Below are positions 27,112 through 29,230 of a stretch of DNA of 64,000 nt, piece after piece; the first letter of the stretch is position 1; every line of letters begins with the position of its first letter. This DNA comes from a virus: IMG/VR virus record IMGVR_UViG_3300009506_000019, positions 64,001-128,000 of that record; one strand, given 5' to 3'. The notes below the pieces were generated by a model that worked only from the letters and a program-made list of their open reading frames with translations, was not told the DNA's origin and made no database searches. A program made the translations under genes and the position numbers.

Positions 27112-27187
27112 TGGTAGGCGAGGGGAGAATCGAACTCACCAACCTGTCGCTTATAAGGCGACGGCTCTACCATTGAGCTACTCGCCA
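27112..27187 (-). tRNA. tRNA-Ile(TAT)
   Basis: Loop CT-TAT-AA, U1:U72 mismatch, CCA. Confidence 0.88.
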
Positions 27188-27738: not shown

Positions 27739-27814
27739 TGGCGGTGCGTACGGGAATCGAACCCGTCGTTTCCTGAGTGACAGTCAGGCCGGTTCACCAG
27801 CTCCGTCACGCACC
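27739..27814 (-). tRNA. tRNA-Asp(GTC)
   Basis: Loop CT-GTC-AC, G73, CCA. Confidence 0.9.
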
Positions 27815-27901
27815 GAGACGTGACCCAACTGTCCTTCAGTAGGTTCTGACCGTTTTGTCGATACCACCGAAGGAGGTCAGTTAGGCCACGGTGGTATCTC
27901 G
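27815..27901 (-). promoter_or_regulatory. Putative attenuator: mutually exclusive RNA structures between leader 1 and tRNA-Asp
   Basis: Perfect 10-bp GATACCACCG/CGGTGGTATC helix competes with long CGTGGCCTAACTG..TCCTTCGGT/ACTGAAGGA-CAGTTGGGTCACG hairpin. Confidence 0.65.
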
Positions 27902-27988
27902 AAAATTCGCTTTAATACCGGCCCACATTGTCGTCGTTATGACGACTCTTCCGGTCCTTGCGACCGAATGTGTGCCGAGGGGTAACAT
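27881..27988 (-). CDS. Putative leader peptide 1 (35 aa) of the 14-tRNA operon
   Basis: MLPLGTHSVARTGRVVITTTMWAGIKANFRDTTVA*; last 27 residues use exactly the 12 amino acids of the downstream tRNAs; ATG 7 nt after TATAAT. Confidence 0.8.
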   Translation of the reverse strand: MLPLGTHSVARTGRVVITTTMWAGIKANFRDTTVA

Positions 27989-27995
27989 CACGATC

Positions 27996-28024
27996 ATTAT
28001 AACACAGCATGCTGTGCGTGTGAA
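27996..28024 (-). promoter_or_regulatory. Sigma70-type extended -10 promoter of the 14-tRNA operon, with 14-bp palindrome in spacer
   Basis: TTCACA-17nt-TATAAT, TGn; CACAGCATGCTGTG at 28003-28016. Confidence 0.75.
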
Positions 28025-28031
28025 TTATTAG

Positions 28032-28115
28032 TGCTGAGGGCGGGACTCGAACCCGCACGAGCAATTGCCCAGGAGATTTTAAGTCTCCAGTGTCTACCAA
28101 TTCCACCACCCCAGC
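28032..28115 (-). tRNA. tRNA-Leu(TAA), CCA not encoded
   Basis: Long variable arm, loop CT-TAA-AA, ends A-CTA. Confidence 0.92.
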
Positions 28116-28116
28116 T

Positions 28117-28202
28117 TGGTGGGCAAGGAGGGAATCGAACCCTCAATCCCGAAGGCACTGGTATTTGAAGCCAGCGTGTATACCAAGTTCCACCACTTGC
28201 CC
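28117..28202 (-). tRNA. tRNA-Leu(CAA)
   Basis: Long variable arm, loop TT-CAA-AT, CCA. Confidence 0.9.
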
Positions 28203-28280
28203 ATGAGCTACGCGCCCTGGAACCCTGTCGTAGCTCGATGACGCCCTCCTACGTGCTTGACGCCACACCACTTTCTCGAT

Positions 28281-28366
28281 TGGTGGGTGCGGAGGGAGTC
28301 GAACCCTCAATCCCGAAGGCACCAGATCCTAAATCTGGCGTGTATCCCAAGTTCCACCACGCACCC
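28281..28366 (-). tRNA. tRNA-Leu(TAG)
   Basis: Long variable arm, loop TT-TAG-GA, CCA. Confidence 0.92.
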
Positions 28367-28367
28367 T

Positions 28368-28453
28368 TGGTACGGGAGGCGGGACTCGAACCCGCACGGA
28401 CAAGCCACATGCTCCTCGGGCATGCGCGTCTACCATGATTCCGCCACTCCCGT
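28368..28453 (-). tRNA. tRNA-Leu(GAG), C33
   Basis: Long variable arm, loop CC-GAG-GA, CCA. Confidence 0.9.
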
Positions 28454-28463
28454 AGCTTACTTT

Positions 28464-28529
28464 TTACAAGGATAAGAGTCGCAGGAGGAAACCTGCGACA
28501 GCGATCGAGTTGTGCGTTTTATTCGCCAT
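28464..28529 (-). CDS. Putative leader peptide 2 (21 aa) of the tRNA-Leu operon
   Basis: MANKTHNSIAVAGFLLRLLSL*; Leu codons CTC CTG CTC TTA TTG; overlaps 8-bp hairpin GTCGCAGG/CCTGCGAC; stop 10 nt before tRNA-Leu(GAG). Confidence 0.7.
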   Translation of the reverse strand: MANKTHNSIAVAGFLLRLLSL

Positions 28530-28538
28530 CTCACTCCA

Positions 28539-28567
28539 AGTATAACATACTGGTGACCGCACATCAA
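28539..28567 (-). promoter_or_regulatory. Sigma70-type extended -10 promoter of the tRNA-Leu operon
   Basis: TTGATG-17nt-TATACT with TGn. Confidence 0.7.
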
Positions 28568-28586
28568 TCATTACCTATATCCGGAC

Positions 28587-28760
28587 ATGGACGAACAGCA
28601 ACAAAAAGATGCATTAGAGTTGTTGAAGGAAGCCACGGCAGCTCACCCAGACATTGTTTATGGAAGACCCAACACAGTAATTTCTCACACAGACATGGTG
28701 AATTGGTTGTATCAGTGGATTCCTCGAGTTCAAGGCTTCCTTGATGAAGTTGATGGATAA
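28587..28760 (+). CDS. Small hypothetical protein (57 aa, below ORF-track cutoff)
   Basis: MDEQQQKDALELLKEATAAHPDIVYGRPNTVISHTDMVNWLYQWIPRVQGFLDEVDG*; fills the divergent gap. Confidence 0.5.
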   Translation: MDEQQQKDALELLKEATAAHPDIVYGRPNTVISHTDMVNWLYQWIPRVQGFLDEVDG

Positions 28761-28812
28761 ATTGACAACCACCACGTGATTATGATCTAATTGGAAGTGA
28801 TAGGAGAACGTC

Positions 28813-28923
28813 ATGGATACCGTGATGAAAAACACAGGCTTCGCTGTTCTTGCCAACGCCCTTGTTGGTCAGTCGCAGCCGTGTTACTCCTATCATCATT
28901 ATTCACAACCACACAGTAGTTAA
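28813..28923 (+). CDS. Putative leader peptide 3 (36 aa) of the 7-tRNA operon
   Basis: AGGAG RBS; MDTVMKNTGFAVLANALVGQSQPCYSYHHYSQPHSS*; last 17 residues are only Q,S,P,C,Y,H; stop 16 nt before tRNA-Ser. Confidence 0.85.
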   Translation: MDTVMKNTGFAVLANALVGQSQPCYSYHHYSQPHSS

Positions 28924-28939
28924 GGCACGCTCACATAGA

Positions 28940-29029
28940 GGAGCGGTAGCCTAGCCTGGTAAGGCGGCGGGTTGCTAACCCGTTGGTGTGCTTGCACACT
29001 CGAGGGTTCGAATCCCTCCCGCTCCGCCA
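28940..29029 (+). tRNA. tRNA-Ser(GCT)
   Basis: Long variable arm, loop TT-GCT-AA, CCA. Confidence 0.93.
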
Positions 29030-29047: not shown

Positions 29048-29230
29048 ATGAAGGATGAATTCAAGAAAGCAGTAATCATGACAGGTGACGTACCGCACTG
29101 TTCGTGTCGGTATTGCAAAAACCTGAATCGCACCAGAATCGACAGGAAAAAGCAAAGAAAACAAAAGAGAAAAAGGAGGGCAAGACAGATTTTGAAGAAA
29201 TATTTACGTACGGGAGTAGCGCAGTGGTAG
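29048..29230 (+). CDS. Small basic protein with HCxCxxC motif inside tRNA operon
   Basis: GAGG before ATG 29048; MKDEFKKAVIMTGDVPHCSCRYCKNLNRTRIDRKKQRKQKRKRRARQILKKYLRTGVAQW*; last codons overlap tRNA-Pro. Confidence 0.6.
   Translation: MKDEFKKAVIMTGDVPHCSCRYCKNLNRTRIDRKKQRKQKRKRRARQILKKYLRTGVAQW

Follow-up and report, generated by a model that had tools for sequence, protein, structure and literature searches.

A leucine-codon ORF ahead of four phage tRNA-Leu genes probably lets ribosomes report leucine-tRNA supply

Results

Promoter, leader ORF and tRNA-Leu genes

The window, that is, the whole stretch of DNA analysed here, comprises 64,000 nucleotides (nts) and corresponds to bases 64001-128000 of a complete IMG/VR virus record of 166,061 bp (48% GC), which represents an uncultured phage. 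The whole genome is called G000 below. Two divergent arrays in the window comprise 25 tRNA genes; a 26th, for tRNA-Glu, is isolated elsewhere in the genome. The unit considered here lies on the minus strand and consists of the following features.

28562..28567 (-): -35 hexamer TTGATG, found by consensus scan; it aligns with TTGACG of the Leu leader of the relative G001
28539..28547 (-): extended -10 element TGtTATACT, with the TG at 28547-28546 and the hexamer TATACT at 28544-28539
28534..28537 (-): GGAG, resembling a Shine-Dalgarno (SD) signal, 2-5 nt past the -10
28464..28529 (-): leader ORF of 21 codons, MANKTHNSIAVAGFLLRLLSL, plus TAA; ATG at 28529-28527, TAA at 28466-28464
28478..28499 (-): GC-rich hairpin GTCGCAGG/CCTGCGAC, 8 bp with a 6-nt loop, -14.1 kcal/mol
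28467..28487 (-): Leu run, CTC CTG cga CTC TTA tcc TTG
28468..28477 (-): pyrimidine-rich tail TCTTATCCTT, still coding, which satisfies a loose terminator rule only
28454..28463 (-): 10-nt spacer from the leader stop codon to the first tRNA
28368..28453 (-): tRNA-Leu(GAG), reading CTC/CTT (ARAGORN and Rfam tRNA)
28281..28366 (-): tRNA-Leu(TAG), reading CTA/CTG (ARAGORN and Rfam tRNA)
28117..28202 (-): tRNA-Leu(CAA), reading TTG (ARAGORN and Rfam tRNA)
28031..28115 (-): tRNA-Leu(TAA), reading TTA/TTG (ARAGORN and Rfam tRNA)

The -35 TTGATG and the -10 TATACT are separated by 17 nt, and together with the extended TG they suggest a sigma-70-like promoter, TTGATG-17-TATACT. A sequence-only reading of this DNA had described a promoter, an ORF, its Leu codons, a hairpin and a tail, and all of these were recovered at the same positions. 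Its statement that five of the last seven codons are Leu, with none earlier, was also borne out: Leu occupies codons 15 (CTC), 16 (CTG), 18 (CTC), 19 (TTA) and 21 (TTG) and is absent from codons 1-14. The run is impure, F, R and S being present as well. The ORF had been placed in front of tRNA genes, and four tRNA-Leu genes indeed follow it, the stop codon lying 10 nt before tRNA-Leu(GAG). According to ordinary wobble rules, every one of these four tRNAs has a readable codon among the five Leu codons of the leader.

A 57-aa ORF (28587-28760, plus strand) diverges from the Leu leader. It has no SD signal and matched no family, and it may also be leaderless because a -10-like CTATAT ends 7 nt before its ATG. 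Directly past tRNA-Leu(TAA), a strong promoter (TTCACA-17-TATAAT) heads an operon of 14 tRNAs, and its spacer is filled by a perfect 14-nt palindrome, CACAGCATGCTGTG (28003-28016, minus strand), which may serve as an operator or mark where the Leu unit ends.

Frequency of Leu-rich frame ends

When stop-to-stop frames of at least 15 codons were counted over the whole genome, 2 of the 5,863 had at least five Leu among the last seven codons. Frames of any length with this property numbered 5 in the 166 kb read in six frames (332 kb of strand), and one of the 5 ends 10 nt before the only Leu tRNA block of the genome, for which the odds were roughly 5e-4. The claim that the leader covers all four isoacceptors held in that the codons match, but the signal is modest: under the phage's own Leu codon usage, coverage of the four by five Leu codons had a p of about 0.11, so that it is only mildly unusual, and the corresponding value for G001 was 0.27.

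We also agree with the sequence-only reading that this is statistically the weakest of the three leaders of the window, since it has only five Leu, in an impure run, with coverage at p of about 0.11. These same properties are what could be said for a chance ORF in a divergent promoter region. Such an accident was already disfavoured, and we regard it as very improbable, as it would have to place one of so few Leu-rich frame ends 10 nt before the sole Leu block and would not account for the independent recurrence of the design in G001.

The Leu leader of a relative

Homologs of a 153-aa protein adjoining the array led to a related IMG/VR record, G001; the protein has about 30 homologs, and the copy in G001 is 69% identical. 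This phage carries four Leu tRNAs (GAG, CAG, CAA and TAA), and the following feature was found.

L005:2728-2861: Leu leader of G001, with promoter TTGACG-18-TAAGGT and an ATG exactly 7 nt past the -10

The ORF of this leader, MQRDHRVLSLLRGPHLSTGLLSLLR followed by a stop codon, has 25 codons and stops 20 nt before the first tRNA. Eight of its 18 final codons are Leu, as many as are reached by 9 of 5,139 frames of G000, and the codons CTT, CTG, TTG and TTA match the local gag, cag, caa and taa tRNAs. The leader DNA of G001 was barely alignable to that of the window, except for the -35, which does align, and yet the design was kept; therefore it is the Leu codons, not the sequence, that are conserved. 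This one relative retains a promoter, a Leu run, a hairpin and an ATG close to the promoter; selection has thus kept the start position, the Leu codons and the internal 8-bp GC hairpin.

The spacer between tRNA-Leu(TAG) and tRNA-Leu(CAA) (28203..28280, minus strand; 78 nt) corresponds to L005:3034-3110 in G001 and has two hairpins. It shares about 85% identity with its G001 counterpart, which exceeds the conservation of the tRNAs, and contains GGAGG and an identical loop stretch of 18 nt, GACAGGGTTCCAGGGCGC; one of the hairpins has two compensatory pair changes compared with G001. In a more distant genome, G002, a lone tRNA-Leu(TAA) (L006:7225-7290) lies behind a -10-like GATAAT and ATG CTG GAA TGA. 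The three-codon frame ATG-CTG-GAA, which starts 7 nt past GATAAT, is too short to count as a leader.

Among GenBank phages no relative was found, as blastn gave tRNA-level matches only and tblastn with the 153-aa neighbour gave none. Searches of viral contigs with the 157-aa and 438-aa neighbour proteins singly yielded no match, nor did the exact 3' half of tRNA-Leu as query, and patterns of the conserved spacer hit only G001 or chance matches. Relatives of the 438-aa protein (L002, L003 and L004) were set aside, having no tRNAs nearby. A match to a D-arm pattern was also rejected, as it came from an unrelated phage of 318 kb whose tRNA directly adjoins a gene, and the baseplate protein had no match in G001-G003.

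Sister leaders and their tRNA blocks

The other two tRNA blocks of the window phage are each headed by a short ORF. The plus-strand leader ORF at 28813-28923 ends in 17 residues, QSQPCYSYHHYSQPHSS, consisting only of S, P, H, C, Q and Y, which are exactly the six amino acids of the seven tRNAs downstream. A run of 17 is the unique maximum among the 5,863 frames, the next-best being 9. The last 27 residues of the minus-strand leader at 27988-27881 include each of the 12 amino acids carried by its 14 tRNAs and no other, and this run is also the unique maximum among the 5,863 frames (next-best, 13). With these two, the Leu leader completes a set of three, among which the 19 amino acids of the array are divided exactly as they are among the tRNA genes.

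In G001, a 122-aa gene lies between the tRNAs for Ser/Pro and those for His/Cys/Gln/Tyr, and each group has its own matching leader: an S/P-rich one, CPSSSSPSPSPSPSSPLSR (L005:4722-4835), and a leaderless one of the YQHCHQY type, MVSRFYQHCHQYPAQA (L005:5995-6044). This co-variation of leader and block is the strongest argument that selection matches leaders to blocks. Taken with the Leu leader of G001, the block-matched sister leaders support the view that selection maintains the ORF as a genuine Leu-codon leader for the tRNA-Leu genes. The sole tRNA gene outside the array, tRNA-Glu(TTC) at G000:C1:25834-25909, lies directly behind a protein gene, and no Glu-rich leader was found there.

The two Leu-leader peptides, of the window phage and of G001, end in LLSL or LLSLLR directly past the 8-bp hairpin. 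A hydrophobic C-terminus (AVAGFLLRLLSL) and an LLSL motif common to G001 would also be expected if the ORF encoded a small hydrophobic peptide that acts independently, for instance on membranes, and whose proximity to tRNA genes is incidental. We consider this highly unlikely: the two phages have unrelated N-terminal halves, which also vary among strains, the length differs (21 versus 25 codons), and the three or four leaders are wholly unlike in composition, each matching its own tRNA block.

Some further features of the array were observed. For the plus-strand leader (28795-28939, plus strand), base pairing is predicted between the SD signal and the first sensor codons (GAUAGGAGAA with UACUCCUAUC), and the same holds for the plus-strand leader of G001 (L005:4708-4843; AGGAGGACG with CGUCCUCC); such pairing may restrict translation to the pioneer ribosome. 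A tRNA-Ile with anticodon TAT, which is unusual in bacterial systems, is encoded at 27112-27187 (minus strand), and its codon ATA appears once in the 14-tRNA leader. Between tRNA-Ser(GCT) and tRNA-Pro lies a small Lys/Arg-rich ORF, MKDEFKKAVIMTGDVPHCSCRYCKNLNRTRIDRKKQRKQKRKRRARQILKKYL... (29048-29200, plus strand), that runs into tRNA-Pro.

Transcription start and mode of translation

The A of the ATG follows the -10 by 10 nt in the Leu leader of the window, 7 nt in the Leu and HCQY leaders of G001, and 8 nt in the 14-tRNA leader of the window. Because the ATG stands only 10 nt past the -10, transcription probably starts downstream of the GGAG at 28537-28534; an RNA starting 7 nt past the -10 (about 28532) would probably leave it outside the transcript. 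If GGAG is untranscribed, as is probable, the mRNA is near-leaderless, and the anatomy implied by the earlier description has to be corrected in this respect. In one strain, moreover, GGAG is changed to GGAA at 28534. From the spacings, the position of GGAG and its loss in that strain, we read these leaders as leaderless or near-leaderless. The SD signal is present at ordinary genes of the phage, and the plus-strand leader is SD-led in both the window phage and G001.

On balance we lean towards the view that the ORF is a translated, near-leaderless sensor of Leu-tRNA. The 10 nt from the -10 to the ATG are, however, long for a true leaderless start, and with a 5' UTR of 1-3 nt initiation may be poor.

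The hairpin inside the ORF

The proposed 8-bp hairpin overlapping the Leu run was confirmed at 28499-28478. It spans codons 11-18, inside the leader ORF, and the Leu run overlaps its loop and 3' arm. When the 79-nt leader was folded, it was more stable than 200 of 200 shuffled sequences (z = -3.3). The leader of G001 also has an internal 8-bp GC hairpin (-13.4 kcal/mol); no U tract follows that hairpin, and the counterpart of the tail, TATCCCTGTTG, has fewer U. Folding of the leader predicted a single hairpin, inside the ORF, and no antiterminator alternative, and no pairing between leader and tRNA was predicted when the two were folded together. A fold with a ribosome mask, in which the AUG region is combined with the freed 5' arm (-8.8 versus -7.5 kcal/mol), was too weak to rely on. 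An intrinsic terminator past the ORF with a competing antiterminator was not found, and the gap between stop codon and tRNA is only 10 nt. Sites with a hairpin plus a U tract number about 7 in the 166 kb of G000 on both strands, and canonical intrinsic terminators are for this reason considered to be hardly used by the phage.

The leader had been likened to leuL and ilvL. An attenuator of the leuL type is ruled out because the hairpin lies inside the ORF; the missing U tract in G001 and the few canonical terminators of the phage speak against it as well. The geometry is at odds with any simple attenuator. An RNA ending at the tail would have no stop codon. The 3' arm and the sequence beyond it contain four of the five Leu codons, which would therefore be read after any termination decision at the hairpin, only once RNA polymerase is past the tail. 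A ribosome coupled to polymerase at the tail would, judging from these distances, still be on codons 10-12, and the hairpin would presumably be masked by a stalled and by a passing ribosome alike. Hence the attenuator mechanism as originally drawn is not supported; conservation and the context of the system do support the interpretation of the ORF as a sensor of Leu-tRNA.

The position of the hairpin recalls the Escherichia coli pyrBI leader, whose ORF runs through a hairpin and where the position of the ribosome decides whether that hairpin forms. By analogy, a closely trailing ribosome could suppress a pause or terminator hairpin here, so that smooth Leu decoding gives more read-through and shortage gives less. 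Such positive coupling would fit a hairpin inside the ORF, the U-rich tail of the window, and the three Leu codons of G001 (8, 10 and 11) just upstream of its hairpin. In the window, however, no Leu codon precedes the hairpin, a ribosome stalled on codons 8-11 of G001 would still cover the 5' arm, the hairpin of G001 has no U tract, and positive feedback on tRNA supply has no obvious use. We therefore hold this coupling to be quite unlikely.

A further explanation dispenses with translation: the promoter and the hairpin would be real parts of a tRNA-Leu precursor, serving pausing, stability or processing, and the Leu-rich frame a by-product of the hairpin and the pyrimidine tail. The hairpin does contribute CTC and CTG to the Leu run by its arm and loop, Leu is the commonest residue in random frames, and the hairpin is kept in both phages. 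The probable position of GGAG outside the transcript, the 10 nt between the -10 and the ATG, and the failure to find terminator/antiterminator logic would suit an untranslated leader too. What makes it unlikely in our view is G001, whose stop-bounded Leu-rich frame (8/18) is built of other nucleotides, begins with an ATG where the RNA is predicted to start, and includes Leu codons that are not part of the hairpin. In addition, such Leu-rich frames are rare in the genome, and the composition of the sister leaders matches their blocks far beyond chance and co-varies with block content in G001.

Strain variation

Strain contigs came from runs of two other studies (P2 and P3) and were 87-99% identical to the stretch. 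Among the differences listed, those in the promoter comprise six in the spacer and two upstream of the -35, and a variant at 28545, just before the -10, keeps the TGn. The leader-ORF variants among those listed are N7S and A10F, both N-terminal. A variant at 28497 (C to U on the minus strand) in the 5' arm of the hairpin keeps the pair as G.U. The hexamers, ATG, Leu run and stop codon showed no variant among the differences listed, where for the Leu run it has to be considered that 28467-28496 is the junction or overlap of two X2 contig pairs. As far as the differences listed go, this pattern speaks in favour of the sensor. The stretch was also present in contigs of four metatranscriptome libraries, which we did not count as expression because contigs cannot show transcription, ends or strand.

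Discussion

A translated sensor for leucine-tRNA

The present results suggest that the leader ORF probably lets ribosomes report leucine-tRNA supply to the tRNA-Leu genes. The match in composition calls for a reading specific to tRNA, and to our knowledge only ribosomes read in-frame codons between a start and a stop; the leader is therefore best understood as a translated sensor.

In the mechanism we propose, the stretch would be the 5' leader of a tRNA-Leu transcription unit holding a translated sensor mini-gene. The sigma-70-type promoter would start the RNA 0-3 nt before the AUG, and the ribosome would read 14 neutral codons and then five Leu among the last seven. Since the Leu codons call on each downstream isoacceptor, the dwell of the ribosome would report the charged supply of exactly those tRNAs. 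A ribosome held on the Leu run would keep the hairpin melted, and an unhindered one would exit at the UAA 10 nt before tRNA-Leu(GAG), upon which the leader could refold. This difference may tune the synthesis or the maturation of the tRNA-Leu precursor. Negative feedback, in which scarcity of Leu-tRNA leads to more tRNA-Leu, is the likelier sign, and we rank it as more likely than positive coupling of the pyrBI kind.

Several outputs can be envisaged: polymerase may pause or terminate weakly at the hairpin and the U-rich tract, Rho or processing may be involved, or a hairpin-dependent pause may synchronise the pioneer ribosome with polymerase while the decision falls further downstream. Processing of the precursor is plausible because in four of the six leaders 8-20 nt separate the stop codon from the first tRNA. 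The likelihood of Rho loading on the leader is rated low, the leader being short and partly structured and the three leaders not consistently C-rich.

We put forward tentatively, as a possible generalization, that large phages run product feedback on their own tRNA operons, each headed by a ribosome-read mini-gene written in the codons of exactly its tRNAs. The Leu unit would be the single-amino-acid case, sampling four isoacceptors, with an output that needs no canonical terminator. If this is true, tRNA genes are gauged by ribosomes reading the codons of that very tRNA, the shortest possible feedback loop, and it would explain how phages with complete tRNA sets dose their tRNAs against the host pool or against host defences that cut tRNA. 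The simplest member is the Leu unit, which involves a single amino acid and four isoacceptors within 66 nt; since the classical terminator model does not account for its anatomy, it could also bring a new output mechanism to light. Such a control would be a ribosome-sensed switch with a new type of mechanism, operating on non-coding genes with no canonical terminator.

Comparison with known systems

Sensing by leader peptides is textbook knowledge for amino-acid operons; its application to tRNA genes was not found in print, as a full-text literature search retrieved no description of leader peptides that precede tRNA genes or arrays. When 27780-29000 was scanned with cmscan against Rfam (E up to 10), only tRNA matches and noise were obtained, none of them in 28454-28570, and neither Leu_leader nor T-box nor any other family was found at the Leu leader. 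Of the likeness to leuL and ilvL leaders noted in the sequence-only reading, the functional part stands, with no match in Rfam to go with it.

The leader agrees with the general class of ribosome-mediated leader-peptide sensors in being a short 5' ORF enriched in codons related to the regulated genes. Its hairpin overlaps the sensor codons, and the terminator logic was not found in a phage where canonical terminators are scarce. Similarly to leuL of the enterobacterial leuABCD operon (Rfam Leu_leader), it has a Leu cluster near the end of a short 5' ORF and presumably reads Leu-tRNA via ribosome speed. leuL, however, controls leucine biosynthesis genes, whereas the phage leader precedes four tRNA-Leu genes. 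The phage leader also differs in that its hairpin is inside the ORF, with no terminator/antiterminator pair past the stop; its Leu codons are mixed and sample four isoacceptors; it is near-leaderless, not SD-led; and its stop codon is only 10 nt from the first regulated gene. The multivalent leaders of the enterobacterial amino-acid operons ilvGMEDA and thr are comparable to the sister phage leaders, which would sense several amino acids, and the Leu leader samples codon classes in a like manner. In the phage, though, the set of amino acids is defined by the downstream tRNA genes and no canonical terminator is present.

With pyrBI the phage leader shares an ORF that runs through the hairpin. 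pyrBI senses UTP through pausing of polymerase and has a strong U tract and a clear terminator, whereas the signal proposed for the phage is tRNA. T-box riboswitches are alike in that the status of tRNA sets the expression of translation-related genes, but they bind uncharged tRNA directly, with no translation, by conserved motifs, and no T-box motif or specifier loop was found here in the Rfam search.

For the mode of initiation there is a documented parallel. Leaderless leader peptides occur in Deinococcus deserti ahead of tRNA synthetase and amino-acid genes (PMC4007540), and like the phage ORF they are short and enriched in the cognate residue. They precede protein-coding genes, in contrast to the tRNA genes of the phage, and the start in the phage is deduced from the spacing to the -10 alone (+10 in the window, +7 in G001). 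The trn L-array of Anabaena sp. PCC 7120 is an accessory tRNA operon that responds to the translation state (PMC8421152, PMC10272220). Its control lies with the repressor TrcR; neither a leader peptide nor a uORF nor attenuation is mentioned in the 2023 paper (PMC10272220). It is the nearest printed case of a tRNA array responding to translation status, and its control by a protein repressor sets it apart from the phage leader.
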